Position numbers and translations under genes: made by a program. From assembly GCA_020073205.1 (NCBI GenBank), contig JAIQFR010000012.1, positions 747 through 64,746 on the forward strand: a stretch of DNA of 64,000 nucleotides, read 5' to 3'. Position 1 is the stretch's first letter, and the number at the start of each line of letters is the position of its first letter. Source of the stretch: Terriglobia bacterium. Its GTDB lineage: Bacteria; Acidobacteriota; Polarisedimenticolia; Polarisedimenticolales; JAIQFR01. This document shows, piece by piece, positions 6,732 through 29,808 of this stretch. The notes under the pieces were generated by a model, which worked only from the letters and a program-made list of their open reading frames with translations, did no database searches and was not told the origin of the DNA.

Positions 6732-7426
6732 CGCAGAATCCTCGCGCCGAGGTGCCACGCAGCCTGGACCAGCCAGACGAGACCGACGAGGCGGAACAAC
6801 CAGAGCGTGGCCCAAGTCCCGATCAGCGCCTGGACGTGGACGGGGAACGGGGAGCTGGCGCCGCCCGGGCGCGGCACCCCGCGCCAAGGGGCGAGCCAGC
6901 CGAGCGGGAGCACCGTGAGACTCACGCCGAGCTTGAACAGCGCGGCGGCGTCGGCGCCGGTCACGGGACCGAGGCGTCCCGTCCCCGCGAACAGCATCGC
7001 CGGCAGGTAGAGCGCGAGGGTGCCGAGGATCCCGGCGCGGAGGAGCCACGTCCGCCGGTCGGCCCAACCGAGGACCCGATCGAGACGCTCGCGGTGCCCG
7101 CCGGTGCAGGCGCGCCACGGGCCGCTCCCGATCGGTTCGGCGACGTCGAATCCCGGACCTCCCGACGCGCCGCCGCCGCACCAGAGGCATCTCCGGGCCG
7201 CGCGACGCAGCGCGAACGGGCGCGCGTAGAGCCGGTGCGTGACCATCAGCGCGACTCCCAGAACGAGCGACCCCGCCGCCCCGATCGGCGTCCGCGTGAA
7301 CAGCCACAGGACCGCCGGGACCGGCAGGAAGAGCAGCGCTCCAAAGACGCGGTCGGCCACGGGGGATATGTAGGCCGCCGCGGTCTCCGGCGCAAGGGGC
7401 GGGGCGCCCCGAGCGCGTCTTGCCAA
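6728..7426 (-). CDS. Hypothetical polytopic membrane protein with CxxC/CxxxH loop
   Basis: The 232-aa ORF has TM-like segments (FGALLFLPVPAVLWLF, GSLVLGVALMV, ILGTLALYLPAMLFA, TLWLFRLVGLVWLV) and a loop with CLWCGGG...ACTGGH. Its stop overlaps the start of the downstream lipoprotein gene. Confidence 0.6.
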   Translation of the reverse strand: MARRARGAPPLAPETAAAYISPVADRVFGALLFLPVPAVLWLFTRTPIGAAGSLVLGVALMVTHRLYARPFALRRAARRCLWCGGGASGGPGFDVAEPIGSGPWRACTGGHRERLDRVLGWADRRTWLLRAGILGTLALYLPAMLFAGTGRLGPVTGADAAALFKLGVSLTVLPLGWLAPWRGVPRPGGASSPFPVHVQALIGTWATLWLFRLVGLVWLVQAAWHLGARILR

Positions 7427-7455
7427 CTCGCCGAGAGGCCGCTTAGCATCGACGC

Positions 7456-8619
7456 ATGCGAAAACTCCACTTCGTCCTCACCATGGCCGCCACCCTCGTC
7501 CCGTCCGCCGCCCGGCATGCCATCGCGGCCGCGCCCGGGGCTCCGGTGCCCGCCGCCGCTCCGGCCGCGCCGGCCGAGGCGGAGGTGGGCCTCTCCTCGG
7601 CCGACGCGGGGCGCTTCGCCAAGCTCGCCCTGGACTGCGTCGGCAAGGAGTACCCGAACAAGATCGCGCACGTGATGAACGGGGACGGGGACGTCAAGCC
7701 GCCGCGCGAGCTGACCCCGGCGTTCTGCGGCTGCTTCGACTGGCACTCGGCCGTGCACGGGCACTGGCTCCTCGCGCGTCTCGCCAGGACGTTTCCGGAC
7801 GCCCCGTTCGCTCCGGCATCCCGCTCGGCCCTCGCCCGGAGCCTGACGCCCGTGAAGATCGCCGCCGAGGTCGTCTACCTCGAGGGAAACGGGCGCGGGA
7901 CGTTCGAGCGCCCGTACGGCCTGGCGTGGCTCCTCGAGCTGGCCGCCGAGCTACGGGAGTGGAACGACCCGGAGGCGAAGACCTGGTCCCTGAACCTCGC
8001 GCCGCTGGAGCGGGCGGCTTGGAAGCGCCTCGCCGAGTGGCTTCCGAAGCTGTCCCGTCCGATCCGCGTCGGCGAGCACGACCAGACCGCGTTCGCGCTC
8101 GGCCTGGCCCTCGACTGGGCGCGAGGCGCCGGGGACCGCGAGGCCGCGGCGTTGGTCGAGGCGCGCATCCGCGACTACTACCTCCGCGACCGGGACTGCC
8201 CGATCGGCTACGAGCCGTCAGGACAGGACTTCCTCTCCCCCTGCCTCGCCGAGGCGGACGTCGTGCGGCGGGTCCTCCCTCCCCCGCGCTACTCGGATTG
8301 GCTCAGGAGCTTCCTGCCGAAGATCCCCACGGTCGCGTCGTCGCGATGGCTGGCCCCCGCGGTCGTCACGGACCCGTCGGACGGAAAGCTCGCCCACCTC
8401 GACGGGCTCAACCTGAGCCGCGCTTGGATGCTCGAGGGGATCGTCGCGGGACTCCCCTCGGCCGACAAGCGGATTCCCGCGCTCAGGGCCGCGGCGGCCG
8501 CGCACCGGGATTCCGGCCTCAGGTCGGTGACCGGCGAGCACTACGAGGGCGGGCACTGGCTCGGTACATTCGCGGTGTACCTGGTGACGGAGAGAGGCCT
8601 CACGGCCGGGGGGACGTAG
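7456..8619 (+). CDS. DUF2891-family protein (secreted)
   Basis: N-terminal signal-like segment. Motifs EYPNKIAHV and CFDWHSAVHGHW, plus overall length, match my recollection of the DUF2891 family. Confidence 0.75.
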   Translation: MRKLHFVLTMAATLVPSAARHAIAAAPGAPVPAAAPAAPAEAEVGLSSADAGRFAKLALDCVGKEYPNKIAHVMNGDGDVKPPRELTPAFCGCFDWHSAVHGHWLLARLARTFPDAPFAPASRSALARSLTPVKIAAEVVYLEGNGRGTFERPYGLAWLLELAAELREWNDPEAKTWSLNLAPLERAAWKRLAEWLPKLSRPIRVGEHDQTAFALGLALDWARGAGDREAAALVEARIRDYYLRDRDCPIGYEPSGQDFLSPCLAEADVVRRVLPPPRYSDWLRSFLPKIPTVASSRWLAPAVVTDPSDGKLAHLDGLNLSRAWMLEGIVAGLPSADKRIPALRAAAAAHRDSGLRSVTGEHYEGGHWLGTFAVYLVTERGLTAGGT

Positions 8620-8642
8620 AGCATCGGTCGGGAGAGGGTCGC

Positions 8643-9695
8643 ATGCGCCGTCCGTCTTCAGCGAGCCGCCTCGTCTTCGAGGACCGCCTGCCGGACCTCC
8701 GTCCTCGCGGCGAGGCGCTCGTCATCTGCGACGCGAAGCTCCCGTCGCTCTCGGCGGGCCTCGCGCGGTGGCTCGTGCGGTTCCCTCGGGTCTATCCCGT
8801 GCGAGCCGGAGAGAAACTGAAGACGCTCCCGACGTTTCACCGCCTGGTGGAGTGGGCGGCCGCCACTCTCCCCGCGACCGATCGCTCGAGGCTCCGCGTC
8901 GTCGCGATCGGGGGCGGCTCCGTCGGCGACTTCGCCGGGTTCTTCGCGAGCGTGTGGCTCCGGGGAGTCGACCTCGTTCTGGTCCCCTCGACCTGGCTCG
9001 CCGCCATCGACTCCGCCCACGGCGGCAAGACCGCCCTGAACGCGGGCGGCGCCAAGAACGCGATCGGGACGTTCCACCCGGCGAGCGAGGTCCGACTCGT
9101 ACGTCGGCTCCTCGACCTTCAGGAGGCGGAGCGGGCCCGTGAGGCCTGGGGCGAGCTCGCGAAGATCGCGATCCTCGACGGGGGGGCGTGGGCCCGCGCG
9201 ATGGCACGGGATCCGGCGCCGGACGGCGAGCTGCTGTGGAAGTACCTCGAGCCCGCCGTTCGCGCGAAGCTCCGCGTGGTCGCGCGCGACCCCGAGGAGA
9301 GAGGCGGGCCGCGGCGACTCTTGAACCTCGGCCATACGACCGGCCACGTCCTGGAAGCCTGGAGCGGCGTCGCTCACGGCGTCGCGGTGGCTCACGGCGT
9401 CGCGTTCGCGGTCGCCTGGAGCGAACGCCGCGGGCTCCTGACGCGTCGTGCGGCCGGCGACCTTCGCGAGTTCCTCGCGACACGCCTCGGACCGACGGGG
9501 AGCGGCCTCCCTCCCGGCGTGCGCCCGATCCCGAGGCTCGCCGCCGCTCGCCTCCTCTCCCGCGACAAGAAAGCAATCTCCGCGTCCCGCGTTCGGGAGG
9601 TGTTCCTCGAGGGCTGGGGGAAGCCGCGGATCGAGGCGGTCCGATTCGCGGATCTCCTCGCCGAGATGGTGCGGCAGGGCTGGGTCCTGCCGTGA
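8643..9695 (+). CDS. aroB: 3-dehydroquinate synthase
   Basis: Listed ORF 7926..9695 was trimmed to ATG 8643. GGGSVGDFAGF, DSAHGGKTALN and NLGHTTGH are DHQS nucleotide/metal-binding motifs. The stop overlaps the next gene's GTG (GTGA at 9692..9695). Confidence 0.9.
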   Translation: MRRPSSASRLVFEDRLPDLRPRGEALVICDAKLPSLSAGLARWLVRFPRVYPVRAGEKLKTLPTFHRLVEWAAATLPATDRSRLRVVAIGGGSVGDFAGFFASVWLRGVDLVLVPSTWLAAIDSAHGGKTALNAGGAKNAIGTFHPASEVRLVRRLLDLQEAERAREAWGELAKIAILDGGAWARAMARDPAPDGELLWKYLEPAVRAKLRVVARDPEERGGPRRLLNLGHTTGHVLEAWSGVAHGVAVAHGVAFAVAWSERRGLLTRRAAGDLREFLATRLGPTGSGLPPGVRPIPRLAAARLLSRDKKAISASRVREVFLEGWGKPRIEAVRFADLLAEMVRQGWVLP

Positions 9696-12600
9696 GCCCG
9701 CGACGGCCGCCGCTCGACTTCGACGGCAAGATCCCGGCCTCGAAATCGATGTTCAACCGCGCCGCGGTCATCCGCTCGTTCGAGGAGCGCGTCGAGGTAC
9801 GGGGACGCTCGAGCTGCGACGACGTGCGGCGCCTCGAAGAGGCGCTCCGCGTGATGGGGACCGGCGCATCGCTCGACTGCGGCGAGGGAGGCACGGTCTT
9901 CCGCTTCCTGACCGCCCGAGCTTCGCGGATACCCGGACGCCACGAGCTCGCCTGCGGCCCTTCCCTCTTCGCGCGGCCGCACGACGGCCTGTTCGACGCG
10001 CTCGCGCCGCTCGGGATCCGCGTCTCGAGCGATCGCGCGAGGCGCGTCGTCGTCGTCGAAGGGCGCGGCTGGCGCGATCCGGGGCGTCCGGTCCGGGTCT
10101 CGCGGGACGTCTCGAGCCAGTTCGCCTCGGCGGTTCTGCTGTCGGCTTGGGATCTCCCCTTCTCCCTGACGCTGGAGGCCGGGCAGGACGGGCCGAGCGA
10201 GCCGTATCTCTCGATGACGCTCGAGATGCTGCGCCGCGCCGGAATGGAGTGGCGCCGGAGCGGAACCATCCTGAGCGTGCCCCCGATGCAGCACCCGGCG
10301 GCGGGGACGCGCCTTCGGTTGGAGCCCGACCTCAGCTCCGCCTTCGCGCTCGCGGCGCTCGCCGCCGTCGCCGGACGCGCACGAATTCACCAGTTCCCGG
10401 CGGAGTCTCTCCAGCCGGACGCCGCGTTCGTGGGGATCCTGCTTCGCATGGGCGCGCCGGTTTGCCGCGACCGGAACGGCGTGCTCGAGGTGAGGTCGCC
10501 CGCGGGCGGCGTGCGCGCGCTCGAGGGCATCGACGTCGACCTCGGCCGCTCGCCCGATCTCTTCCCGGTGCTCGCGGTCCTCGCCTCCTTCGCTTCGGGG
10601 CCGAGCCGCCTCGCCGGCGCGCCCCACCTCGCCCACAAGGAGTCGGATCGGATCCGCAAGACGGCGGAGCTCGTCGCCCTCGTCGGCCGCGAGGCGACGG
10701 TCCTTCCCGACGGGCTCCGGATCGAGGAGGGCGAGCCGCGTTTCGGAGCGGAGCGCGCGTACGATCCGGCGGGGGACCACCGTCTCGCGATGGCGGCGCA
10801 CGTCGCCGCCGCCGCCGGCGCCCCGATCGAGATCCTCCACAAAGAGGTGGTCGACAAGAGCTTCCCCGAGTACTGGCCGATCGTCCTCGGCGGCGGCCTC
10901 GCCGAGACGACGTTCCTCGCGGGGCAGCGGGGGGTCGGGAAGTCGTCCCTCCTGAGGCGGCTCCTCGTCGCGGCGCGAGACCGGGGGATCGCGCTCCACG
11001 CGCTCGACCTCGACGGAGAGATCGAGAGACGAGAGGGTGTCCCGATCCCGGACCTCTTCGAGGCGGGAGGAGAGGCGCGGTTCCGAGCGCTGGAGCGGCG
11101 CACGCTGGAAGCGGTCCTCGACGAGTTCGCGGCCGCGCGCCGCCGCGGGGAGCCGGCCGCGATCGCCCTCGGCGCGGGGTTCGAGGCGTTCGACCTGCCC
11201 GTCTTCCGCTCGCCGCTGACGAGGGTGATCTGGGTGCGGCGACGCACCGACGACGACGGCCGGATCTTCCTCGACCGGCCGCGGCTCGACGCGTCGGCCA
11301 CGCCTCTGGCCGAGTTTCGGTCGCGCGCGCGGGATCGTGGCGCACGGTTTCGCGCGATCGCCGACCGCGAGCTCGTGCTGCGCGAGGGCCTCCCCGAGAC
11401 CGCGGGCTCGGAGCGCGACCTCCTCCTCCTCGGCCGGGCGCGTCTCGGCGCGTGGCTCACGATGCCGCCCTCCGCCCTCGTGCGACCCGCGGGCATCGCG
11501 CAGTACTGGGAGGCGAGGCGGGACTGGGGGATCGAGCGGGTCGAGCTCCGCGACGACCTGCTCCCGCCCGACCGGATGCTCGCCGCGCGCGACGGGATTC
11601 CCGACGAGCGACTCGTCGTGAGCTTCCGCGTCCCCGGCGCTCCCGTCCCTCGAGACCTCGATCCGCCGATCGAGGTCGACTGGGCGCTCGAGCTGGGACC
11701 GCCACCCGAGGGACTGCGCCCGACGATCGCGTCGCTCCACGAGCGGCTCCCCGGCGAGAGCCTTAGGAGCGCGCTCGACCGGCTCGTTGAGACGGCCCCT
11801 GCCGGGACGCCGCGGCTCAAGGCGGCGCCGGAGGTTCGCGACTTCGCGGAGCTCGCGGCGGGCGACGCGTGGCAACGGCGCGATCCCCACCGCCGGTCGT
11901 TTCTTCCCCGCTCGCCGGACGGACGGTGGAGCTGGTACCGGCTTCGGCAGAAGGGCCGGCAGGCGATGGGATTCGTGCGGGACGGCGGGGACGCGGGGCC
12001 GGTGGGCGCTCCCGATCAGCCGACGCTGCTGGAGTGGCTCGACGAGCGGCCGGGCCTCTCACGCTTCGGCGCGGTGCTCGGCGACCCGGTGGCGGCGAGC
12101 CGCTCGCCGGCGCTCCACCTGGCGTGGGCCCTCTCGCGGGGGGCGTCCTACTACGCGATCCGCGTCGCCGAGACCGAGTTCGACGAGGCGATCGCCGTCC
12201 TGGAGCAGCTCGGCCTCGGGTTCGCATCGGTCACCGCTCCGCTCAAGCGCGCGGCGCTCCGTCTCGTGGGCGCCTCGGCATCGCCGCTCGCCGCCGAGGC
12301 CGGCGCCGTCAACACGCTGCTCCGGGAAGGGCGAGAAGCGGCATGGACCGGCGAGAACACCGACGTGCCGGGGCTCGCCGCTGGCGTCGAGGAGTGGAAG
12401 CGCGCCGAGGCGATCCCGGACTTGGCCGCGCTCCGGATCGCGCTGTGGGGTGGCGGTGGCACCCTCGAGGCGATGCGCCGCGCGTTTCCCGGTGCCGTGG
12501 CGTTCTCCGCCAGGACGGGACAGCCGCGGGACGGGAGCCTCGCTTCGGGCCCGTGGGACGTCGTGGTCTGGGCCGTGCCCCGCTCGCGCGCCGGTGCGTG

Positions 12601-12775
12601 CGTCGCCCCGGGTCCCGAGCTTGGGCCCCGCCTCGTCTTCGATCTCGACTACCGGGAGGACTCCCCCGGTCGGGAGTTCGCGCTGACGTGCGGGGCGAGG
12701 TACTTCTCCGGCCTGCATTTCCTGGAGCGGCAGGCGGCTCTCCAGCAGCGATTCTGGAGCCTCCATGAGCGCTAA
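9692..12775 (+). CDS. Tetrafunctional shikimate-pathway fusion: EPSP synthase (AroA) - shikimate kinase (AroK) - type I 3-dehydroquinase-like (AroD) - shikimate dehydrogenase (AroE)
   Basis: One uninterrupted frame; listed ORF 9188..12775 was trimmed to GTG 9692. AroA (about 9692-10890): IPASKSMFNR, GEGGTVFRFL, SSQFASAVLL, HKESDRI, DHRLAMA. AroK (about 10900-11390): Walker A GQRGVGKSS, DLDGEIERREG..IPDLF..GEARFRALE. AroD-like (about 11390-12045): VELRDD, ASLHE, RLKAAPE. AroE (about 12050-12775): GDPVAASRSPALH, SVTAPLK, GAVNTL, GENTDVPG, WGGGGT. Confidence 0.88.
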   Translation: MSPRRPPLDFDGKIPASKSMFNRAAVIRSFEERVEVRGRSSCDDVRRLEEALRVMGTGASLDCGEGGTVFRFLTARASRIPGRHELACGPSLFARPHDGLFDALAPLGIRVSSDRARRVVVVEGRGWRDPGRPVRVSRDVSSQFASAVLLSAWDLPFSLTLEAGQDGPSEPYLSMTLEMLRRAGMEWRRSGTILSVPPMQHPAAGTRLRLEPDLSSAFALAALAAVAGRARIHQFPAESLQPDAAFVGILLRMGAPVCRDRNGVLEVRSPAGGVRALEGIDVDLGRSPDLFPVLAVLASFASGPSRLAGAPHLAHKESDRIRKTAELVALVGREATVLPDGLRIEEGEPRFGAERAYDPAGDHRLAMAAHVAAAAGAPIEILHKEVVDKSFPEYWPIVLGGGLAETTFLAGQRGVGKSSLLRRLLVAARDRGIALHALDLDGEIERREGVPIPDLFEAGGEARFRALERRTLEAVLDEFAAARRRGEPAAIALGAGFEAFDLPVFRSPLTRVIWVRRRTDDDGRIFLDRPRLDASATPLAEFRSRARDRGARFRAIADRELVLREGLPETAGSERDLLLLGRARLGAWLTMPPSALVRPAGIAQYWEARRDWGIERVELRDDLLPPDRMLAARDGIPDERLVVSFRVPGAPVPRDLDPPIEVDWALELGPPPEGLRPTIASLHERLPGESLRSALDRLVETAPAGTPRLKAAPEVRDFAELAAGDAWQRRDPHRRSFLPRSPDGRWSWYRLRQKGRQAMGFVRDGGDAGPVGAPDQPTLLEWLDERPGLSRFGAVLGDPVAASRSPALHLAWALSRGASYYAIRVAETEFDEAIAVLEQLGLGFASVTAPLKRAALRLVGASASPLAAEAGAVNTLLREGREAAWTGENTDVPGLAAGVEEWKRAEAIPDLAALRIALWGGGGTLEAMRRAFPGAVAFSARTGQPRDGSLASGPWDVVVWAVPRSRAGACVAPGPELGPRLVFDLDYREDSPGREFALTCGARYFSGLHFLERQAALQQRFWSLHER

Positions 12776-13796
12776 CCGTTTCGGCGAGCGGTTCGAGATC
12801 CTCACCTTCGGCGAGAGCCACGGCCCGGGCCTCGGCGTCGTCATCGACGGGTGTCCGGCGGGCGTCCCGTGGGACGCGGCCCTGCTCGAGCGCGAGATGG
12901 CCCGGCGCCGCCCCGGCCAGGCGTTCGGTTCGGGACGCGCCGAGCCGGATCGGGTGGAGGTTTTGAGCGGCGTGTTCGAGGGATTCACCCTCGGAACGCC
13001 GATCGCGCTCCTCACACGAAACGTCGACGCGCGATCCTCGGACTACGAAGCCTTGCGGGACGCCCCCCGCGTGGGGCACGCCGACGACGTCTGGCTCGTG
13101 AAGTTCGGCCGGAGCGACCCCAGGGGCGGCGGACGCTCGTCCGGGCGCGAGACGGTGGCCCGTGTGATGGCGGGAGCGGTCGCCCGCATGCTCGTACGCT
13201 GCCTCGAGCCCCGAATCGCGGTCCTCGGCTACACCTCCGCGATCGGCCCTCTCGCGCTGTCGGACGTGGACCGGACCGGCGCGGCGTCGATGGACGAGGA
13301 CCGGCTCGAGGCGTTCCCGGCACGCTTCCCTTCCCCGACGCGGTCGGAGGCGATCGTGGAGCTTCTCGATCGAGCGAAGACGGAGGGGATGAGCTGGGGA
13401 GGGACCGCCGAGATCCTGGTCGAGAACCCGCCGGCGGGCCTGGGCCAGCCGGTGTTCCACAAGCTGAAGGCGGACCTGGCGTCCGCGATGCTGTCGACCG
13501 GCGCCACTGCCGCGGTCGAGATCGGCTCGGGTTCCGCGTCCGCCCGCGCGGAGGGGACGGCGTTCCACGACCCGCGTGCGGGAGGGAAGCCGTACGGCGG
13601 CATTCGGGGGGGGATCACGACGGGAGAGAGGCTGAGGCTCTCGGTCTCTTTCAAGCCGACGTCGTCGGTGCGTAAGTTCGCCAGGAGCGGACGCCACGAT
13701 CCGTGCATCGTGCCGCGCGCCATTCCGGTCCTCTGCTCGATGACGTGGCTCGTGCTCGCCGATCACCTGCTGTGGCGGCGGCAGGACCGGGTCTGA
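12765..13796 (+). CDS. aroC: Chorismate synthase
   Basis: FGERFEILTFGESHGPGLGVVIDGCPAG, GGGRSSGRET and the RHDPC-containing C-terminus are chorismate synthase signatures. It overlaps the fusion gene by 11 nt. Confidence 0.93.
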   Translation: MSANRFGERFEILTFGESHGPGLGVVIDGCPAGVPWDAALLEREMARRRPGQAFGSGRAEPDRVEVLSGVFEGFTLGTPIALLTRNVDARSSDYEALRDAPRVGHADDVWLVKFGRSDPRGGGRSSGRETVARVMAGAVARMLVRCLEPRIAVLGYTSAIGPLALSDVDRTGAASMDEDRLEAFPARFPSPTRSEAIVELLDRAKTEGMSWGGTAEILVENPPAGLGQPVFHKLKADLASAMLSTGATAAVEIGSGSASARAEGTAFHDPRAGGKPYGGIRGGITTGERLRLSVSFKPTSSVRKFARSGRHDPCIVPRAIPVLCSMTWLVLADHLLWRRQDRV

Positions 13797-13808
13797 GGGG
13801 CCGCGGGG

Positions 13809-14603
13809 CTACGGCGCGCGTCCGACCGCCGCGAGCACCGGCCCGAGCTCCCGCACGATCGCGCGGAACCCCTCGGGGGTCAGCGCCTGGAAGCCGTCGA
13901 CGCGCCCGCCGGTGGGCGACGGGTGGACCTCGACCATGAGCCCGTCGAGACCCGCCGCGGCGGACGCGAGGCACATCGGACCGATCAGCTCGGGGCGCCC
14001 CGTCGCGTGCGACGGATCGACGATGACGGGGAAGCTCGAGTGCTGCCGCGCCCAGACGGCCCCGGCGAGGTCGAGGGTGTTACGCGTCTCGGTCCCGAAG
14101 GTCCTGATCCCTCGCTCGCACAGGACGATCGACTCGTTCCCGGCGCCCGAGACGTACTCCGCGGCGAGCAGCCACTCCCTCAAGGTCGCGGCGAAGCCGC
14201 GCTTCAGGAGGACCGGCTTCCGCGTCGCCCCGAGCTCCTTGAGCAGGTAGGAGTTGTGCATGTTGCGCGAGCCGACCTGGAACGCGTCGACGTGGTCCAT
14301 GAGCAGCCCGATGTGATCGGGCGACGCCACCTCCACCAAGAACGGGAGGCCGGTCGCCTCCCGCGCGTCGTCGATCAGCTCGAGGGCTTCGGTTCCGAGC
14401 CCCTGAAAGGTCTTGGGGTCGGTGCGCATCTTGAAGACGCCGCCCCGCAGGACGTGGGCCCCGTCCTCACGCAGGCGCCGCGCGACCGAGAGGAGCTGCT
14501 CGCGCGACTCGACCGCGCACGGACCCGCGATCAGCGCGAAGCGCTGGCCGCCGAAGCGCGCTCCGCCGATCCCGACGATCCTCGTGTCCGACTCGACCCT
14601 CAT
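13809..14603 (-). CDS. 3-deoxy-7-phosphoheptulonate (DAHP) synthase, class I-beta-like
   Basis: Listed ORF 13809..14792 was trimmed to ATG 14603 (MRVESDTRIVGIGG); an upstream in-frame ATG (MLRSRG...) is possible. LIAGPCAVES, GGVFKMRTDPKTFQGLG, FQVGSRNMHN and IVDPSHA fit the DAHPS/KDO8PS-fold I-beta family. The pathway context supports DAHPS. Confidence 0.85.
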   Translation of the reverse strand: MRVESDTRIVGIGGARFGGQRFALIAGPCAVESREQLLSVARRLREDGAHVLRGGVFKMRTDPKTFQGLGTEALELIDDAREATGLPFLVEVASPDHIGLLMDHVDAFQVGSRNMHNSYLLKELGATRKPVLLKRGFAATLREWLLAAEYVSGAGNESIVLCERGIRTFGTETRNTLDLAGAVWARQHSSFPVIVDPSHATGRPELIGPMCLASAAAGLDGLMVEVHPSPTGGRVDGFQALTPEGFRAIVRELGPVLAAVGRAP

Positions 14604-14751
14604 CCGCTCCCCAGGGGGGTTCCCCCGCGACCGCAACATCGTACCGGGTGGGACAGGCCGTGTCGACGTCTCCGTTATGATCGTACCCGGCCTCTCCGGG
14701 GCCCGGTCGCGCCGATCGCGCGGGGCGATCCCGGAGTGCGGATCCCGAGCC

Positions 14752-15807
14752 ATGCGCTCCGCCGTCGCGTTCGTCGAGACGTCGCCCGGCACCCTCGCGG
14801 TCGCCGAGGGGGATCTGCGCCGGCTCGCGAGCCCGCCCGACGGGGTGGGGGCTTTCTACGCGCCCGACTTCCGGCTCGCCGACCCCGCGCCCTGGCGGGT
14901 TCCGACCTCCGAGGCCCGCGCCACCCTCCCGTTGCGCGCCTTTCTCGAGGAGTTCTCGCGGCGGGGCCCGGCGGGATCGCTCCCGGAGTGGACCGCTCCC
15001 GACGAGCCCAGGTTCGTGCGCGCCTACCGCTCGCTCGCCGCGTCGTTCGCGCGCGGCGATCTCCTCAAAGGGGTCCCGGTCACGCGGGCCTGCGCGGCGT
15101 GGCCCGACGACGAAGCGGAGCCGCTGTTCCGGCGGCTCCTGTCGAGGATCGGCTCGCTGCCCGAGGGGCTGCACCCTTACGGCCTCCTGGGTCCCGCGCG
15201 CGATGGCGCGGGGTCCGAGTTCATCGTCGGCGCGACCCCCGAGATCCTCTTCGATCGTCGGGGACGCGGCACGATCCGGTCGGAGGCGATCGCGGGAACT
15301 CGCGTCGTCGGGTCGGCGGCGCCGCCGCTCCTCTCCGACCCGAGGATCCGCGAGGAGCACGGTCGCGTCGTCCACGACCTCGTCGAGCGGATGTCGCTCT
15401 GGGGCCCTCCCGAGGCGACCGCTCCGCGGCCGTGCGCCTTCGGGACGCTCGAGCACCTCGTGTCCGTCGTCGGGATCGAGACGGCCGGCGGGCCTGCCTT
15501 CGACGAGATCGCGCGGCACCTCCATCCGACCGCGGCGCTCGGGAGCTACCCGCGAGGCGCCGCGGGATCGCGCTGGCTCGAGGAGATCGACCCTCTGGGC
15601 GAGCGAGGGAGCTTCGGCGCCCCGTTCGGATTCAGGTACCCCGACGGGACCGGCCGCTGTCTGGTCGCGATCCGAGGAATCCGTTACCTTGGCGGGAGGC
15701 TCGAGATCTGGGCGGGGTGCGGGGTCGTCCCCTCGAGCCGTTACGACGACGAGTGGCGGGAGGCGTGCGACAAGATCCGGGCCGTGAGGTCGTTGTGGGG
15801 GATCTGA
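14752..15807 (+). CDS. menF: Isochorismate synthase (short MenF type)
   Basis: Listed ORF 14413..15807 was trimmed to ATG 14752. GATPEILF, AIAGT, REEHGRVV, HPTAALGSYP and AGCGVVPSS...E are chorismate-binding enzyme motifs. It sits immediately upstream of menD. Confidence 0.85.
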   Translation: MRSAVAFVETSPGTLAVAEGDLRRLASPPDGVGAFYAPDFRLADPAPWRVPTSEARATLPLRAFLEEFSRRGPAGSLPEWTAPDEPRFVRAYRSLAASFARGDLLKGVPVTRACAAWPDDEAEPLFRRLLSRIGSLPEGLHPYGLLGPARDGAGSEFIVGATPEILFDRRGRGTIRSEAIAGTRVVGSAAPPLLSDPRIREEHGRVVHDLVERMSLWGPPEATAPRPCAFGTLEHLVSVVGIETAGGPAFDEIARHLHPTAALGSYPRGAAGSRWLEEIDPLGERGSFGAPFGFRYPDGTGRCLVAIRGIRYLGGRLEIWAGCGVVPSSRYDDEWREACDKIRAVRSLWGI

Positions 15808-15818
15808 GCGCTCCCGGG

Positions 15819-17411
15819 GTGCCGGGTGCGGAAGGCGGGGTCAACGAGGCGCTCGCGATCGAGATCGTCGAGCGGCTGTGGCGATCCGGCGTGCGCACCT
15901 TCTGCGTATGCCCGGGGGGACGGAACGCGCCGATCGTGGAGGTCCTCGACGCGCTGCCTCGCGACCGCGCGTCGGTGCTCGGATTCTTCGAGGAGCGCGC
16001 GGCGGCGTTCTTCGCGCTCGGCCGCGCGCGCCGCGATCGCGCCCCCGTCGCGGTCGTGACCACCTCGGGCACCGCGGCGGCCGAGCTGCTGCCGGCCGCC
16101 GTCGAGGCGTTCTACGCGGGGGTACCGCTGGTCCTCGTCACCGGGGACCGCCCGGCCTCGTACCGAGGGACCGGCGCGCCGCAATCGATCGAGCAGGCGG
16201 ACCTCCTCGGGCGCCACGTCGCGCGCGCGATCGACCTCGACCGGCCGGGGACGTCTTGGAGCCTCGGCGATCCGCGGGGCCCCGTTCACGTCAACGCGTG
16301 CTTCGACGAGCCGCTTCCCGGCGCGCGCGCCGGGGCCGGCCCGCTCCTCGAGGAGCGGCCAAGAGGCCTGCCGCCGTCCCCCGCCGACGCCGCGATCGCG
16401 CGCGAGGTCGGCACCTTCCTCAGGAGCCACGATCGTCCTCTCGTCGTCGTGGGGCCGCTCGACGACGAGCGCGACGCGGCGGACGTGCTGGCCTTCTGCC
16501 GCTCCCTCGGGGCGCCGGTCATCGTCGAGGCGTCGTCCGGTCTTCGGGAGCGTGTCGGCGCGCTCCGGCTCCGGGGTGGGAACCTGTCCGCCCGACTCGC
16601 GCTCGACCGCGGCGAGGTGAACGCGGTCCTTCGCCTCGGCGGCGTGCCGTCGTTTCGCGTCTGGCGCGATCTCGAGGCCGCGATCGCGGCGCCGGTCCTG
16701 TCGCTGTCGCGGTGGCGGTGGAGCGGGCTCACGCGTGGGCGCCATCTCGAGGTGCACTCCGGCGGGCCGTTGCCGCTCTCCCGCGTCGAAGCGGCGATCT
16801 CGCCGGCCGCCTTCGCGGCGACCTTCGCGCGCGACCGCGCGATCGCGTCGAGGGCGAAGGCGCTCGTCGAGCGGTTCCCCTTCAGCGAGCCCGCGCTCGT
16901 GCGGCGTCTGTCGCTCGCGATCCCGCGAGGAGCGCTCGTCTACCTCGGAAACAGCCTCCCGATCCGGGAGTGGAACGAGTACGCGGGGGAGGAGGATCGC
17001 GGCTTGAGGGTGCGGGACAGCCGCGGCGCCAACGGCATCGACGGGCAGGTGTCGACGTTCCTCGGCCTCGCCGGGCCCGATCGCGAGAGCTGGGCGATCG
17101 TCGGTGACCTGACCGCCCTCTACGATCTCGCGTCGCTCTGGGCCTTGAGGCACCTCGAAGGCCACGTGGTCCGGATCGTCGTCGTGAACAACGGGGGAGG
17201 ACGGATCTTCGAGCGGATGTTCCCCAATCCCGTCTACCAGAACCGTCACGCCCTTCGCTTCGAGGCGTGGGCGAAGCTGTTCGACGCCGACTACCGCGAG
17301 GGAGTCCCCGACGCGCCCCTCGGCCGATTCGCGGTCGTCGAGTGTCGGCCCGACGATGCCGAGACGGCGGCCTTCTGGACCGAGCTGAGGCGCGGGGCGG
17401 TCCCGCCATGA
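15819..17411 (+). CDS. menD: 2-succinyl-5-enolpyruvyl-6-hydroxy-3-cyclohexene-1-carboxylate (SEPHCHC) synthase
   Basis: This is the C-terminal part of listed ORF 13923..17411. GTG 15819 (alternative GTG 15795) precedes [30 protein letters not shown]...[10 protein letters not shown]...VTGDRP and the ThDP motif GDLTALYDL...NNGGGRIF. Confidence 0.88.
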
Positions 17412-21196: not shown

Positions 21197-21574
21197 CGGG
21201 ATCGGGACCTTCGCCCCCCGAACGAGGTCGGCGAAGACGTGCGTGACCCGCGTCTCGGCGCACCGCTTCGGCTCCCCCTGCTCCATGTCGAAGAACTGCG
21301 TCGTCACCTCGAACGAAGACTCCCCGATCTTGGTGATCCGGATCTCGGCGTCGTAGCTCCTCCCCGGCCGGAGCGGCTGCTCGAAGATCGCCTCCGCGCG
21401 GCGAATGGGCACCGCGACGCTCGCGTCCCGGAACCAGCTCGCCCACGAGGTGCCGAGCTCGTCGGTCACGAACCCCTCGTAGACGCGGTGCGCGACCTCG
21501 AGGAGCCGCGCGAAGAAGAGAACCCCGGCCGGGTCGGCCTGGTCGAAGTGGATCGTCACCGGTCGTCGATACAT
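21155..21574 (-). CDS. Hotdog-fold (4HBT/YbgC-like) acyl-CoA thioesterase, DHNA-CoA thioesterase candidate
   Basis: Listed ORF 21155..21616 was trimmed to ATG 21574 (MYRRPVTIHFDQADPAGVLFFARLLEV = 4HBT catalytic Asp context). It converges on menE with a 42-nt 3' overlap. Confidence 0.75.
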   Translation of the reverse strand: MYRRPVTIHFDQADPAGVLFFARLLEVAHRVYEGFVTDELGTSWASWFRDASVAVPIRRAEAIFEQPLRPGRSYDAEIRITKIGESSFEVTTQFFDMEQGEPKRCAETRVTHVFADLVRGAKVPIPSDIKARMEAHFER

Positions 21575-21732
21575 CGCTCGGATTCTCCACGCGGCGACGG
21601 CCGCCACGAGGACCATACACGAACCCCGGCCGCCGCCGCCAACGTCTCCCGGAGTATGCTTCGGGGTGCCGGGCCTCCGTTCGGACGGTCCCCAGGGTCG
21701 GGCCGATTCGAAGCGGGGACGAAAGGGCCGTC

Positions 21733-23538
21733 ATGCGAACCCATCGCCCGGATCGACTCTCGGTCCTGTGCGTCCACGGGATCGGCCACGGCGACGCGGA
21801 CGCGTCGCTCGTCCCGTCGTGGACCGACGCGATCACCCAGGTCGTCCATCGCTGGCAGCCGGGGTGCGCCGTCGACCTAGAGTTCCTGCGCTACGACGAC
21901 CTCTTCGATCACGCCCCGCTCGATCTCGCCGTGTACGGCCGGGCGCTGGCGGAGATCCTGGCCAGCGGCGCCGTCCACGGAATCGGAGATTTCCTCGGCG
22001 GGGCGCGCGGGCTTCACGACCTTCCCGATCAGGTCCGCTGGACCGCCGGGATGATCGCGCAGTGGGCCACGGAGGACGGCCTCCGCGACGGGCTGCGCCG
22101 GCGTCTCCTCCAGGCGATGAGGGACCGTGAGCCCGATCTCGTGTGCGCGCACAGCCTCGGCTCTCTGATCGCCTACGACACGTTCCGCCGCAACCCGGGG
22201 GTCCTCGCGGGGAAGACGCTCCTGACATTCGGATCCCAGATCGGCAACCCGTTCGTCCGCGACGCGTTCGCGGGGCGGATCGAGCCGCTCGACGCCCGGG
22301 CCTGGTATCACCTCTTCAATCCCGCCGACCGCGTCTTCACGTCGCGGCTCAGGATTGAAGCGCCGAACTTCGTCGAGGTCCTGACGGAGTTCGACAAGCC
22401 GAACGACGTCATCAACCACGACCCCGTCTGCTACATGAGCCACCCGGACGCCCAGGCGCGGGTGTGGGCCGAGATCGCGGGCGGCGGCCCCCCGAGAAGC
22501 GTGGCGCGCGCGTTTCGCGCGATGCAGGGCTTCGCGAAGCGGCCCGACCGCCGCGCCCTCCTGGTCGGGATCAACGCGTACCCCGACCCTGCGAACCGCC
22601 TCGAGGGGTGCGTCAACGACGTGTTCCTGATGAGCTCGGTGCTCCAGGAGTGCGGTTTCGGCCCGGAGGAGATCCGCGTGGTCCTCGACGAGCGGGCGAC
22701 GGCGCAAGGGATCCTCGAGCGCCTCCACTGGCTCCTCGACGACGTCGACGGCGGCGCCGAGCGGGTGCTCTTCTACTCGGGGCACGGCGCCCAGATCCCG
22801 AGCTACGACGTCCGCGGGGAGGTCGACCATCTCGACGAGTGCCTCGTGCCGTACGACTTCGACTGGACCCCCGCGCGCGCCATCCGGGACAAGCAGTTCG
22901 TCGAGTTCTACAGCCAGCTCCCCTACGACGCGCGCTTCGTCGCGATCTTCGACTGCTGCCACTCCGGGGGGATGAACCGCGAGGGCGGGGCCCGTCCGCG
23001 CGGCATCGAGCCGCCGGACGACATCCGCCACCGCGCGCTCGAGTGGGATCTTACGCTCCAGATGTGGCGGGAGCGCAAGCTCCGGCCGCAGAACCCGACC
23101 CTCGCGGGGTCGAAGGTGGGGAGCGCGTATCTCGGGCGGCGCGGCGTCACGCACCGGTTCGGCCGAGGGATGGCGCTGCGCTCCCTGCCGTCGTCGACCT
23201 ACGACCGCGAGCGCAAGAGGCTCCGCCACCGCGGCGCCTATCTTCCCGTGATCCTCGAGGCGTGCCAGGAAGCCGAGCTCTCCTACGAGTATCGAGACGG
23301 GGCGACGTCTTACGGCGCGTTCACGTACTGCCTCGCCAAGGTGCTCCGGATCGTCCGCGGCCAGGGGCAGAATCCCACGTTCCGTGAACTCACCGAGCGG
23401 ACCGCCGGCCGGCTCCGGGCGCTCGACTACCGGCAGACGCCGGCGCTCGTCGGCGCGAGGCCCCTGCTCGACGAGGCGATCCCGTGGTCACGGCGGCCGC
23501 GCCCGCGCCGGGCCCGGCGAGGAGGAACCGATCGATGA
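21733..23538 (+). CDS. Fusion protein: N-terminal alpha/beta-hydrolase (lipase/esterase-like) domain + C-terminal metacaspase-like peptidase C14 domain
   Basis: N-domain: VLCVHGIGHG and nucleophile elbow AHSLGS (Ser codon 22153..22155). C14 domain: RRALLVGINAYP...GCVNDV, YSGHGAQ (His codon 22783..22785), FDCCHSGG (Cys codon 22957..22959) and a p10-like EACQEAELSYEY..SYGAFTYCL. No signal peptide. Confidence 0.88.
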   Translation: MRTHRPDRLSVLCVHGIGHGDADASLVPSWTDAITQVVHRWQPGCAVDLEFLRYDDLFDHAPLDLAVYGRALAEILASGAVHGIGDFLGGARGLHDLPDQVRWTAGMIAQWATEDGLRDGLRRRLLQAMRDREPDLVCAHSLGSLIAYDTFRRNPGVLAGKTLLTFGSQIGNPFVRDAFAGRIEPLDARAWYHLFNPADRVFTSRLRIEAPNFVEVLTEFDKPNDVINHDPVCYMSHPDAQARVWAEIAGGGPPRSVARAFRAMQGFAKRPDRRALLVGINAYPDPANRLEGCVNDVFLMSSVLQECGFGPEEIRVVLDERATAQGILERLHWLLDDVDGGAERVLFYSGHGAQIPSYDVRGEVDHLDECLVPYDFDWTPARAIRDKQFVEFYSQLPYDARFVAIFDCCHSGGMNREGGARPRGIEPPDDIRHRALEWDLTLQMWRERKLRPQNPTLAGSKVGSAYLGRRGVTHRFGRGMALRSLPSSTYDRERKRLRHRGAYLPVILEACQEAELSYEYRDGATSYGAFTYCLAKVLRIVRGQGQNPTFRELTERTAGRLRALDYRQTPALVGARPLLDEAIPWSRRPRPRRARRGGTDR

Positions 23539-24740
23539 GCGAGATCGCGCAGTGGACCTGGATCGTGTACATGGCCGGCGACAACAACCTCGAGGACGCG
23601 GGGCGCTCGGACCTCGGGGAGATGAAGCGCATCGGCTCGACCGCGGACGTCAACGTCGTCGTCCAGTTCGACACCGAGTCGAAACGGACGACGAGGTACC
23701 GCGTCGAGAAGAACCGGCTCAAGACGATCCAGGAGATGCCCGGAGTGGACTGCGGCGATCCCAAGGTCCTGGCCGGGTTCGCGCAGTGGGCCGTGAAGAC
23801 CTTCCCCGCGCGTCACTACCTGCTCGACGTCTGGAATCACGGCGGCGGATGGGAGAACCTCCCCGCGGACTACGACTACGATTCCATCCGCCTCGCCAAG
23901 CCGACGCGCGCCGCGCGCCTCCGCCGCCTCAAGCGCTCGCTGTTCCGCACCACCGTGGCGAAGATCCACCGGCGCGGCGCCGCCGCGCGCGCGATCGCGA
24001 TCGATTGCGGCTCGCACGACTACCTCGACAACCGCGAGCTCAGGAGCGCGGTGTCGAGGGCGTTTCCTCCCGGACGGAAGCTCGACGTCCTCGGCTGCGA
24101 CGCGTGCCTCATGAACATGATCGAGATCGCGTACGAGATGAAGGACGGCGCTCGCTTCATGGTCGGCTCCGAGGAAACGGAGCCCGCCGCCGGGTGGCCC
24201 TACGCAGCGATCCTGAAGGCGCTGGTCGGGAAGCCCGCGACGAGCCCCGCGGACCTCGCGAAGCGGATCGTCGTCGAGTACGGTAGGTACTTCAAGCGCA
24301 GAGGCGAAGCGGCGACGCAATCGGCCCTCGACCTCTCCCGCGTGACCGCCCTGGCCGGGGCCGTCGACGAGCTGGCCGTCGCGCTTCTCGCCGATCTCGA
24401 AGCGGTCGCGGGGACCGTGAGCCTCGCCCGGGACCGGGCGCAGAAATTCGAGATGCCGGAGTACGTCGACCTCGGAGACTTCGCCGCGCAGCTCGCCAAG
24501 CGCCTTCCACGGAGCGCCGCCGTGCAGGCCGCGGCGGCGAAGGTGCGAGCGGGACTCGATCCGGGCGGCGCCGAGCCGCTCGTCATCGGGAACGCGACCG
24601 CGGGGGCTTCCGTCGCCCGCTCGACCGGGGTATCGATCTACTACCCCCATCGCGAGGACTACTCGCCGGACTACGCGGAGTTGCGCTTCAGCAGGGACGT
24701 GAAGTGGCACCGGTTGCTGCAGGGGATGTTCAAGGCCTGA
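23535..24740 (+). CDS. Clostripain-family (peptidase C11) cysteine protease
   Basis: ATG 23535 overlaps the upstream stop (ATGA). WTWIVYMAGDNNLE, DVWNHGGGW (His codon 23838..23840), LGCDACLMNMIE (Cys codon 24105..24107) and GSEETEPAAGWPY are C11 hallmarks. No signal peptide. Confidence 0.88.
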   Translation: MSEIAQWTWIVYMAGDNNLEDAGRSDLGEMKRIGSTADVNVVVQFDTESKRTTRYRVEKNRLKTIQEMPGVDCGDPKVLAGFAQWAVKTFPARHYLLDVWNHGGGWENLPADYDYDSIRLAKPTRAARLRRLKRSLFRTTVAKIHRRGAAARAIAIDCGSHDYLDNRELRSAVSRAFPPGRKLDVLGCDACLMNMIEIAYEMKDGARFMVGSEETEPAAGWPYAAILKALVGKPATSPADLAKRIVVEYGRYFKRRGEAATQSALDLSRVTALAGAVDELAVALLADLEAVAGTVSLARDRAQKFEMPEYVDLGDFAAQLAKRLPRSAAVQAAAAKVRAGLDPGGAEPLVIGNATAGASVARSTGVSIYYPHREDYSPDYAELRFSRDVKWHRLLQGMFKA

Positions 24741-25804: not shown

Positions 25805-25813
25805 TGCTAGAAT
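25805..25813 (+). promoter_or_regulatory. Extended -10 promoter candidate (TGcTAGAAT) for the GGDEF-EAL gene
   Basis: TGCTAGAAT lies 34 nt upstream of ATG 25847. There is no good -35, which is tolerated by extended -10 promoters. Confidence 0.35.
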
Positions 25814-25846
25814 GGCGCCGCCCCCTTTCCGACATTCGGGGCGCAC

Positions 25847-27958: not shown

Positions 27959-28115
27959 GGCGGCGCGCTCCCGGAGGGAGCATGACGTCGCCTCCCCCGC
28001 CTACGTGGTCGGGTTCGGTGGCGCTCGCCTGACCCTGTGGCGTGACGCCGCCACCTGGAAGAGAATTCCGTCCGCCGCCGATCCCCGGGAGGGATCCGGC
28101 AATGGGAGGTGTCGC

Positions 28116-29075
28116 GTGATCGCGGTCGAAGGCCTGACCAAACGTTTCGTGGACCGGGACGCGGTCGCCAACGTGTCCTTCTTCGTGCCGGAGGGGGAGG
28201 TGCTCGGCTTCCTCGGCCCCAACGGCGCCGGCAAGACGACCACCATGCGGATGATCACCGGCTTCCTGCCGGCGACGTCCGGCAGCGTCCGCGTCGCCGG
28301 GATCGACCTCGCGCGCGACCCCCTCGGCGTGCGGGCCCGGATCGGCTACCTCCCCGAGAACGTGGCGCTCTACCCCGAGATGCGGGTCTCGGAGTACCTG
28401 CGCTTCCGGGCCGCCATCGAGGGGGTGCCGCGGAAGGATGTCGCCGCGCGGGTCGACGACGCCTCCGGCCGCACGATGATCGGCGACGTGCGGCGTCAGC
28501 TGATCGGCACTCTCTCGAAGGGTTACCGCCAGCGCGTCGGCCTCGCCAGCACGCTCTTGCACCGACCGCCGGTGCTGATCCTCGACGAGCCGACGGTGGG
28601 GCTCGACCCGCGCCAGATCGTCAACATCCGCGAGCTGATCGTCGCGCTGGGGAAGGACCACACGGTGATCCTCTCGACGCACATCCTCCCCGAGGTCGAG
28701 CAGGTGTGCCGACGGGTGCTGATCATCGACGAGGGCAAGCTGATCGCCGACGGCACGCCGGAGCAGCTGCGCACCGGCCTCGCCGGCGCCGCCGAGGTGG
28801 TCACGGAGCTCGACGCCCCCGAGGCGGACGCCCGCGCCGCGCTCGAGCGGCTCCCCGGCGTCGGCGCCGTGCGCGCGGACGGCCCCGGCCGATTCCGCCT
28901 CTCGGTCGAGGGGGGCGGCGACCTGCGCCGCGCGGTGTTCTCCCTCGCGGTCGAGAAAGGATGGGTGCTGCTCGAGCTGAGCCAAACCGTTCCGTCGCTC
29001 GAGGACATCTTCCTGCGCCTGACCACCCGCGACGCCGCGGCGCCCGAGGCGGCGGCGGAGGTGGCCCGTGCGTAA
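28116..29075 (+). CDS. ABC transporter ATP-binding protein (GldA-like, ABC-2 type)
   Basis: GTG 28116 with GGGAGG 6 nt upstream, inside listed ORF 28005..29075. Walker A GPNGAGKTT, signature LSKGYRQR, Walker B ILILDEP. Confidence 0.92.
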   Translation: MIAVEGLTKRFVDRDAVANVSFFVPEGEVLGFLGPNGAGKTTTMRMITGFLPATSGSVRVAGIDLARDPLGVRARIGYLPENVALYPEMRVSEYLRFRAAIEGVPRKDVAARVDDASGRTMIGDVRRQLIGTLSKGYRQRVGLASTLLHRPPVLILDEPTVGLDPRQIVNIRELIVALGKDHTVILSTHILPEVEQVCRRVLIIDEGKLIADGTPEQLRTGLAGAAEVVTELDAPEADARAALERLPGVGAVRADGPGRFRLSVEGGGDLRRAVFSLAVEKGWVLLELSQTVPSLEDIFLRLTTRDAAAPEAAAEVARA

Positions 29076-29808
29076 GAGCCTGGCACTCGTCCGGCGCGAG
29101 CTCACGGCGTACTTCTCGTCGCCGCTCGCCTACGTGGTGCTGACCGCGTTCCTGTTCTTCAACGGGTACGTGTTCTGGCTGATCATCGCATTCCTCAACG
29201 ACCCGCGCACGCAGGCGATGGCGCCGCTCAGGCTGATGTTCGGCGGCACGCTCTTCTTCTGGCTGCTCCTGCTGTTCGTGGTGCCGGTGATCACCATGCG
29301 GCTGCTCGCCGAGGAGCGCCGCACCGGCACCCTAGAGGTGCTGCTCACCTCGCCGGTGAGCGAGGGCCAGGTGGTGATCGCGAAGTTCGTCGCGGCGCTG
29401 ATCTTCTACCTGTTCCTCTGGCTACCGACGGTGGTCTACGTGCTCATCCTCGGCAGCTACTCGAGCATCGACCCGGGGCCGGTGGGAGCGGGCTACCTGG
29501 GCATCGCTCTCTTGGGCGTCCTGTTCGCCGCCATCGGTTTGCTGACCTCGGCGCTCACGCGGAACCAGATCGTCGCCGCGATCTTCGCGTTCGCGCTCCT
29601 GATGGTGCTGTTCTCGATCGGGCTGCTCGAGCAGCTCGCCACATCTCCGTCGCTCAAGAGCGCGCTCTCCTACATGAACCTCTGGGACCACATGGACGAC
29701 TTCGCGCGCGGCCTCGTCGACACCCGCCACGTCGTCTACGACCTCAGCCTCGCAGGGCTGTTCCTCTTCCTCGCGACCAAGGCCCTCGAGGCCAAGAAGT
29801 GGAGGTGA
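29068..29808 (+). CDS. ABC-2 type transporter permease (GldF-like)
   Basis: GTG start overlaps the ATPase gene by 8 nt. It has six hydrophobic segments, and the EERRTGTLEVLLTSP motif is typical of ABC-2 permeases. Confidence 0.88.
   Translation: MRKSLALVRRELTAYFSSPLAYVVLTAFLFFNGYVFWLIIAFLNDPRTQAMAPLRLMFGGTLFFWLLLLFVVPVITMRLLAEERRTGTLEVLLTSPVSEGQVVIAKFVAALIFYLFLWLPTVVYVLILGSYSSIDPGPVGAGYLGIALLGVLFAAIGLLTSALTRNQIVAAIFAFALLMVLFSIGLLEQLATSPSLKSALSYMNLWDHMDDFARGLVDTRHVVYDLSLAGLFLFLATKALEAKKWR

Follow-up and report, generated by a model that had tools for sequence, protein, structure and literature searches.

A bacterial gene encoding four shikimate-pathway domains in AROM order, and its three-domain relatives in Bdellovibrionota

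Introduction

AROM-type proteins, which unite several shikimate enzymes, are described from fungi and protists, and the corresponding bacterial enzymes are typically monofunctional (PMC6851490, PMC9074039). In the AROM proteins of Chaetomium thermophilum (6HQV) and Candida albicans (7U5S), the domains of EPSP synthase (EPSPS), shikimate kinase (SK), type I 3-dehydroquinase (DHQase) and shikimate dehydrogenase (SDH) follow an N-terminally fused 3-dehydroquinate synthase (DHQS). Here we describe a gene that carries the same four domains in the same order in a bacterial operon, with DHQS encoded by the preceding, overlapping gene. It lies on a stretch of 64,000 nucleotides (in the following ‘the window’) of contig JAIQFR010000012.1, deposited as Terriglobia bacterium (assembly GCA_020073205.1). 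Compared with AROM, the SK, DHQase and SDH domains of this gene are far more divergent. In plants (Arabidopsis DHQ-SDH, 2GPT/2O7S) and in bacterial AroD-AroE proteins, a type I DHQase directly precedes SDH as it does here, and SK and EPSPS, both present in the window, are lacking. The Arabidopsis enzyme is the best sequence match in the PDB at the DHQase/SDH boundary (residues 767-910).

The DHQase domain of Candida albicans Aro1 has no conserved catalytic dyad and is inactive, and the benefit of fusion has been left open for AROM itself (PMC9074039). In the literature covered, outside which the key paper on AROM origins lies, no bacterial EPSPS-SK-DHQase-SDH or SK-DHQase-SDH protein was described, and no description of the Bdellovibrio shikimate locus was found. 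We consider it probable that the locus encodes a single tetrafunctional enzyme in an overlapping-frame operon aroB - aroAKDE - aroC, as part of a cluster for the full pathway, and that it derives from an ancestral split state. This reading builds on the observed integrity of the gene, its domain identities, fold and conserved catalytic residues, the operon structure and the distribution of relatives. The bacterial family of SK-DHQase-SDH proteins with a cryptic DHQase, apparently undescribed, is a broader and more useful result than the fusion itself.

Position and integrity of the fusion gene

The aroA-aroK-aroD-aroE fusion gene occupies 9692..12775 of the forward strand and runs in a single frame from a GTG start to a TAA stop, with 1027 codons and no internal stop. 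The G+C content of this region is 73% (host about 71%), which results in many long spurious open reading frames, and therefore the G+C content at the third codon position was compared across all three frames in bins of 180 nt. From 9660 to 12540 the fusion frame had the highest value in each bin, and the leading frame switched only near 9690, from the frame of aroB, and near 12765, to the frame of aroC.

Most relatives are divided exactly at the border between aroA and aroK by overlaps of 1-4 nt, and one wrong base could give the appearance of a fusion. The gene might thus be an artefact, in which a stop codon was lost or a frameshift introduced at this overlap, the true arrangement being two genes as in Bdellovibrio bacteriovorus. 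Contigs from four freshwater-sediment metagenome runs, assembled independently, span 8500..13900 free of insertions and deletions, and one metagenome contig of 9.7 kb is identical to the window throughout. Additionally, a JGI contig (L081) from a diverged strain, whose protein is 97% identical, shows the same three gene calls, the same aroB/fusion junction and again a fusion gene of 1027 aa. Fifteen further fused homologues share 34-45% identity, and the third-position periodicity described above is unbroken.

The linker between EPSPS and SK (10886..10903, forward strand) is short, reads …EYWPIVLGGGLAETT… and stands where the relatives have the stop/start overlap of aroA. Between 10877 and 10927 neither an in-frame ATG, GTG or TTG nor an in-frame stop was present, so that a separate SK-DHQase-SDH product from an internal start at this site is impossible. 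Altogether this confirms that the fusion gene is real and chromosomal, and an assembly artefact is so improbable that we give it next to no weight. The first-pass annotation of this DNA had proposed one uninterrupted frame of 3084 nt, with aroB immediately upstream and its stop overlapping the GTG of the fusion as GTGA, and had called for reads or an independent assembly across 9685..9700. The sequence, the third-position signal, the four metagenome runs and the diverged strain agree with it on each of these points, and neither an indel nor a frameshift was seen at the junction.

The EPSPS, SK and SDH domains

The domains were assigned by family models, by structure prediction with AlphaFold2 (pLDDT 85.8 and pTM 0.68 for the whole 1027-aa protein) and by conservation in an alignment of the fusion protein with 13 full-length homologues of 34-45% identity (14 members). 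The catalytic roles of single residues were assigned after those established in the enzyme families, including SK structures.

The EPSPS domain (9692..10885, forward strand; residues 1-398) matches PF00275 over residues 59-396 (E 2e-58, 198 bits against a cutoff of 22.8), placing it in the family. TIGR01356, the curated EPSPS model, matches residues 14-396 with a score of 236, under its cutoff of 287. In the PDB, Mycobacterium tuberculosis AroA (2o0b) was matched with 121 bits and a target-normalised TM score of 0.82. Invariant residues are K18 and R23 (KS..R), K316, E317, S318 and R320 (the KESDR motif), D362-H363-R364 and K389.

The SK domain follows at 10904..11389 (forward strand; residues ~405-566) and is recognised by SKI PF01202 over residues 413-478 (E 1e-7, 32 bits against a cutoff of 22.1). 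Its invariant positions comprise the Walker A motif G411-x-R413-G414-x-G416-K417, D439/D441 (DxD), G460-E461…F464-R465, G494/G496, R516-R517 and R529-P530. Together with the family model, the Walker A motif, the DxD motif and the putative substrate-binding and lid arginines identify a shikimate kinase. In addition, a co-linear fold match was obtained to Candida Aro1, in its SK-DHQase-SDH fragment (7tbv).

The C-terminal SDH domain (12059..12772, forward strand; residues ~790-1027) has a short NAD(P)-binding half. Shikimate_dh_N PF08501 matches residues 795-876 (E 4e-12, 46.6 bits against a cutoff of 27), and PF01488 and PF18317 were not detected in this part by the Pfam scan. S803, K852, N874, T890-D891, W919-G920-G921-x-G923 (WGGGG) and Q1014 are invariant, so that the catalytic Lys (K852) and Asp (D891) and the Gly-rich NADP loop (919-923) are all in place beside the PF08501 match. 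The NCBIfam models for aroA, aroK and aroE hit the same stretches as Pfam, all under their equivalog cutoffs. The invariant columns in these domains are those expected of active enzymes.

The cryptic dehydroquinase domain and the case for four activities

Between SK and SDH lies a divergent domain (11447..12049, forward strand; residues ~586-786), whose identity as a type I DHQase was settled only by structure prediction, fold search and profile-profile comparison together. The AlphaFold2 model of this segment reached a pLDDT of 87.8 and a pTM of 0.86. In a Foldseek search of the PDB with this model, the top 37 matches were all type I DHQases (best E 1.7e-5, TM ~0.62, probability 1.00), including Arabidopsis DHQ-SDH and the AROM complex, in line with a (β/α)8 fold of the type I DHQase kind. 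Comparison by hhalign with canonical, Pfam-positive DHQase I domains of other bacterial fusions gave a probability of 94% and an E value of 1.4e-7. In this register, the motif pairs ELRDD/ELRLD, SxR/TxR, SxH/SxH, LK/vK, WYR/lRv and DQPT/PGQl are aligned, and the sites of the general-base His and of the Schiff-base Lys lie among them. E618, R620, R646, H683, K710, R750 and Q776 are invariant in the 14 family members, and comprise the putative catalytic His683 (11738-11740), the Schiff-base Lys710 (11819-11821) and the Glu/Arg/Arg/Gln substrate set.

If all four domains are active, as we infer from their sequences, they would catalyse steps 6 (EPSPS), 5 (SK), 3 (type I DHQase) and 4 (SDH) of the pathway, step 3 proceeding via a Schiff base on Lys710 with the help of His683. 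Several points weigh against such a tetrafunctional enzyme. The four activities rest on sequence and models for every member of the family. DHquinase_I PF01487 and the NCBIfam DHQase models gave no match at E<=0.01 in residues ~586-786, and a search of the PDB with the family profile ranked two type I DHQases on top with E values of 0.4-0.7, insignificant on their own. The SKI match covers only model positions 1-61 (in the relative P0194, positions 1-141), and the aroE hits of NCBIfam (residues 793-928) fall short of the cutoff. As a whole, SK, DHQase and SDH are too divergent for the curated models. Separate aroD/aroQ, aroK or aroE genes may lie outside the visible 64 kb. Finally, two short metatranscriptome contigs, which match aroB and the SK region exactly, are a weak sign that the aro locus is transcribed; these RNA contigs are sparse, span no junction and are possibly DNA carry-over.

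The DHQase-like domain could be a dead scaffold as in Candida albicans Aro1 (PMC9074039), so that the protein would be trifunctional and would depend on a DHQase made in trans from another gene of the genome, either of type II (aroQ) or again of type I. This precedent, together with the failure of the Pfam and NCBIfam models, the profile E value of merely 0.4 and a view limited to 64 kb of the genome, speaks for it. However, the fold is confidently that of a type I DHQase, and the aligned His, Schiff-base Lys and Glu/Arg/Arg/Gln set is invariant over 14 members with only 34-45% overall identity. Moreover, C. albicans Aro1 itself has lost the catalytic Lys, whereas Lys710 is retained here and invariant in the family, and the domain is kept in hundreds of clusters. 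We therefore regard an inactive domain as unlikely. The motif register and the invariant catalytic set make the domain look active rather than degenerate, despite its very strong divergence.

The first-pass annotation had placed EPSPS, SK, type I DHQase-like and SDH motifs on one polypeptide in AROM order, and the Pfam and PDB searches, the fold and hhalign agree with this. The domain scans that it suggested found EPSPS, SK and SDH; the DHQase, unseen by Pfam and NCBIfam, was recovered only by fold and hhalign. Thus, its description of this segment as the most divergent part holds, but not its suspicion of degeneracy, in view of the fold and the invariant His/Lys set. Pfam and NCBIfam miss the domain throughout the family, also in the model predator B. 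bacteriovorus; this is an annotation gap, and automated reconstructions may show a false gap at pathway step 3.

Operon and pathway context

Directly upstream, aroB (8643..9695, forward strand) encodes a 3-dehydroquinate synthase of 350 aa with both Pfam domains (DHQ_synthase N-terminal, E 3e-27; DHQS_C, E 2e-20). The NCBIfam aroB model matches with 190 bits, under its cutoff of 305, and the model of an AroB-related sugar-phosphate cyclase is matched as well. The overlap with the fusion gene (9692..9695, forward strand; CCGTGAGCC) consists of the GTG at 9692-9694 and the aroB TGA at 9693-9695, a signature of translational coupling, and GTGA-like overlaps are also present at the equivalent junctions of relatives. 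Downstream, aroC (12765..13796, forward strand), for chorismate synthase of 343 aa (PF01264, E 1e-98; NCBIfam NF003793, 325 bits, above the cutoff of 321), starts with an ATG at 12765 and overlaps the last 11 nt of the fusion, before its TAA. A type Iβ DAHP synthase gene (13809..14792, reverse strand, start codon unrefined; PF00793, E 2e-63; NCBIfam NF006421, 351 bits, above the cutoff of 335) is convergent with aroC. All seven steps to chorismate are in this way encoded within 6.2 kb (8643..14792).

The genes aroB - aroAKDE - aroC would be transcribed as an operon, and the overlapping reading frames suggest translational coupling across the aroB/fusion/aroC junctions. With the convergent DAHP synthase, the cluster would provide the whole route from phosphoenolpyruvate and erythrose-4-phosphate to chorismate, which would then be consumed by menF- and menD-like products encoded downstream. 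The menF-like gene (14413-15807) is of the chorismate-binding type, and the menD-like gene (~15800-17411) codes for a thiamine-pyrophosphate enzyme. The same neighbours were seen in B. bacteriovorus Tiberius (L082), so that chorismate synthesis and the entry steps to menaquinone form a conserved supercluster.

A specialised route has to be weighed at this point, e.g. quinate/shikimate catabolism or the formation of a secondary metabolite, in which the divergent domains would have altered specificity. AroB and all three C-terminal domains stay under the curated equivalog cutoffs, and the cyclase match of aroB points in the same direction. On the other hand, the set of seven steps is full and non-redundant, aroC and DAHP synthase exceed their curated cutoffs, the same cluster is the shikimate locus beside aroC in B. 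bacteriovorus, and chorismate-using menaquinone genes lie downstream. A specialised role is hence quite improbable, and biosynthesis of chorismate stays the preferred reading.

Upstream of aroB, a DUF2891 gene (7456-8619, E 1.5e-132) ends 23 nt before its start. The only sigma-70-like site of the region (7420-7449) precedes this gene, which may therefore be co-transcribed with the aro genes; in B. bacteriovorus it is not conserved upstream of aroB. The promoter and terminator scan, uninformative at 73% G+C, gave this one promoter-like site and no convincing terminator. In the Rfam scan of the window no riboswitch, leader or rRNA was detected.

Fused and unfused relatives

A search of 5.8 billion proteins returned 15 further four-domain homologues of 968-1077 aa. 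Those with a name come from metagenome-assembled genomes of Bdellovibrionaceae or Pseudobdellovibrionaceae, and they are labelled ‘hypothetical protein’ or after a single domain. The SK-DHQase-SDH part was then used as a query against 1.84 billion cluster representatives, and 449 clusters (at 50% identity) were obtained at E<=1e-30. Among the best 150 of these, 146 have 513-717 aa and are nearly all full-length, stand-alone three-domain proteins; the other 4 are fused to AroA. The AroA-fused protein is accordingly, by sequence, a rare variant of a large three-enzyme family of Bdellovibrionota. The host itself is assigned as an uncultured high-GC relative of Bdellovibrio, because its aroC (~60% identical to that of Bdellovibrio) has nearly only Bdellovibrio among its best named matches. 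It had been allowed for in the first-pass annotation that such fusions might prove common and already described in this lineage: three-domain relatives are indeed common and four-domain forms recur, but a description was not found in the literature covered.

The stand-alone proteins are homologous to the window across its 629-residue C-terminal part (35-49% identity) and share with it the operon aroB-aroA-[SK-DHQase-SDH]-aroC and the cryptic DHQase. Unlike in the window, where one frame runs through, their aroA is closed by a separate stop codon that overlaps the following start (ATGA, GTGA, TAATG). The fused state was found in L001, P0001-P0015 and P0194. A clean stop/start boundary between aroA and the three-domain gene is seen in L002, L003, L006, L007, L010, L084 and B. 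bacteriovorus Tiberius; in these split loci the aroA stop overlaps or abuts the next start, and they represent gene boundaries, not frameshifts. In the relatives, overlaps of 4-8 nt occur at aroB|aroA, aroA|SK-DHQase-SDH and SK-DHQase-SDH|aroC. In the case of the cultured B. bacteriovorus str. Tiberius (CP002930.1), aroB (350 aa), aroA (391 aa), the gene for a 608-aa SK…SDH protein and aroC overlap successively by 4-8 nt, and DAHP synthase, menF and menD follow a few kb downstream, syntenic with the window. The middle domain of this 608-aa protein (L082:6178-8004) is likewise unseen by Pfam, and its annotation may miss the DHQase step.

The closest relatives of the SK-DHQase-SDH part (47-49% identity) include both fused and unfused forms. 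In the nearest unfused relative (L084), aroA ends with …WETTP* and the next gene begins with V-ITTLVGHRGVGKT, within CCGTGATC. The linker of the window (…LAETT-FLAGQRGVGKS) resembles this aroA end joined to the start of the next gene (VITTLVGHRGVGKT), and would fit the loss of a stop/start overlap through a small indel. When 162 SK-DHQase-SDH segments were arranged in a neighbour-joining tree, the fused forms fell into at least three groups, which suggests that fusion or fission was repeated; the tree is crude and has long branches, and the number and direction of events are uncertain, a further point against our reading. The lineage most likely started from the split arrangement aroB | aroA | SK-DHQase-SDH | aroC, in which stops and starts overlap by 4 nt. 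A four-domain gene would be created once a small indel in the overlap of aroA and SK removed the stop, and such a fusion seemingly occurred, or was reversed, more than once. Both the direction and the number of these events are deduced here from sequence comparison. The presence of fused and unfused versions in close relatives would allow a direct test of a kinetic or stoichiometric benefit.

Relation to eukaryotic AROM

The criterion of order is common to the locus and AROM, i.e. EPSPS-SK-DHQase (type I)-SDH with the DHQS gene directly upstream. The five fused domains that define AROM are not present: DHQS is encoded apart (8643..9695), in another frame and with its own stop, as the independent assemblies confirm, and the polypeptide has four domains. 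By domain content, the locus would work like four-fifths of AROM and falls outside the AROM family in the five-domain sense. The first-pass annotation had described it as one overlap away from a pentafunctional gene. The GTGA overlap is there, but it has no special status, as overlaps of 4-8 nt are ordinary in the relatives and no bacterial five-domain (aroB-fused) form was seen among the family members listed.

For the whole chain, AROM (6hqv) is the best PDB match on two measures, the summed sequence score (1e-38, from three stretches) and the fold (E 8e-47, co-linear over ~1200 columns), because the domain order is shared. The full-length model did not superpose on 6hqv (TM score 0.32, root-mean-square deviation 22 Å); the inter-domain geometry of the model is unreliable, and this comparison has no bearing on the quaternary layout of AROM, a homodimer that packs ten domains compactly and is joined through DHQS and DHQase. 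This best match and the identical, non-pathway order B-A-K-D-E could be explained by horizontal transfer of a eukaryotic AROM gene, from which DHQS was split off, and in most relatives EPSPS too. Judged from similarity scores and not from trees, the single domains tell a different story. The EPSPS domain scores 121 bits with M. tuberculosis AroA versus 87 with AROM, aroB scores 112 bits with Thermus DHQS (1ujn) versus 80-84 with AROM DHQS, and SDH scores 36 bits with Arabidopsis DHQ-SDH versus 34 with AROM; in the case of the DHQase part, no sequence match to AROM was obtained. No domain thus appears specifically AROM-like in sequence. In addition, the family has many members and reaches deep into Bdellovibrionota, it has a bacterial operon context with menF/menD synteny, and a canonical counterpart in Acidobacteria (see below) is also nearer to bacterial and plant enzymes than to AROM. 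Descent from a eukaryotic gene is consequently very improbable.

The opposite direction, in which the order of AROM was inherited from a bacterial overlapping operon aroB-aroA-[SK-DHQase-SDH], is a speculative and rather unlikely proposal. If true, the loci of Bdellovibrionota and Acidobacteria would preserve successive three-domain and four-domain intermediates of one fusion series, and AROM would have been assembled largely in bacteria via losses of stop codons at coupled junctions. The first-pass annotation had stated that a gene in AROM order bears on the origin of AROM; the order is shared, but the similarity scores give no domain a particular affinity to AROM. The link to AROM origin is one of domain order, and nothing in the sequences points to ancestry of AROM. 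In bacteria the AROM order exists at three levels of fusion, namely operon, three-domain protein and four-domain protein, and this makes the origin of the order testable by domain phylogenies.

Other bacterial shikimate fusions

In Vicinamibacteria and other Acidobacteria, aroB-aroA is followed by the gene of a ~697-aa protein with canonical SKI, DHquinase_I, Shikimate_dh_N and SDH_C domains. In the metagenome-assembled genomes of Vicinamibacteria/Acidobacteria (L056:4535-9413 and L033), this protein is annotated merely as ‘shikimate dehydrogenase’. The acidobacterial SK-DHQase-SDH proteins (L056, L033; P0236-P0299) share domain and gene order with the window. They differ in that Pfam detects every domain (DHquinase_I at E 2e-32, SKI in full, SDH_C), whereas the DHQase of the window is unmatched; aroA is unfused, and their SDH part is only ~30% identical to that of the window protein. 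Their domains are closer to bacterial SK and plant DHQ-SDH than to AROM. On the basis of these comparisons, the acidobacterial three-domain proteins are a second bacterial lineage with the gene order of AROM, in an unrelated phylum and forming a sizeable family.

Other combinations were also noted among metagenomic proteins (P0019/P0023, P0020/P0027, P0032/P0068, P0319; L011:5944-7572), namely AroB-AroA, AroA-AroK, AroD-AroA, AroD-AroE-AroK and AroK-AroB. Adjacent pairs of the AROM order hence recur in prokaryotes, beside other orders. Several loci from other phyla (L013, L021, L022, L032, L050, L053, L074, L077 and others), which seemed to be matched over the full span by tblastn, were rejected, as they have separate aro genes in other orders. 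A 627-aa ‘chorismate synthase’ of the sponge Geodia barretti (P0295) consists of an SDH part, 94% identical to the Vicinamibacteria protein, and chorismate synthase; the likely explanation is that bacterial DNA entered the sponge assembly and two genes were merged.

Elsewhere in the window

Adjacent genes at 21337-24740 encode a caspase-type Peptidase_C14 protein (733-aa frame) and a clostripain-type Peptidase_C11 protein, and between 17400 and 21100 no reading frame passed the coding filter based on third-position G+C. The stretch 25811-32583 encodes, in this order, a PAS-GGDEF-EAL protein, an ABC ATPase, a GldG-like protein (ABC_transp_aux) and a DUF4340 protein. The region 38624-49451 contains two NrfD-family membrane subunits (38624-39958, reverse strand; 48267-49451, forward strand) together with a PAS-HAMP histidine kinase (42135-44291) and a multihaem cytochrome (45733-46935), and may be a respiratory or redox module. 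Finally, the window breaks off within a Ser/Thr protein kinase gene (60863-64000), whose product has a long TPR region.

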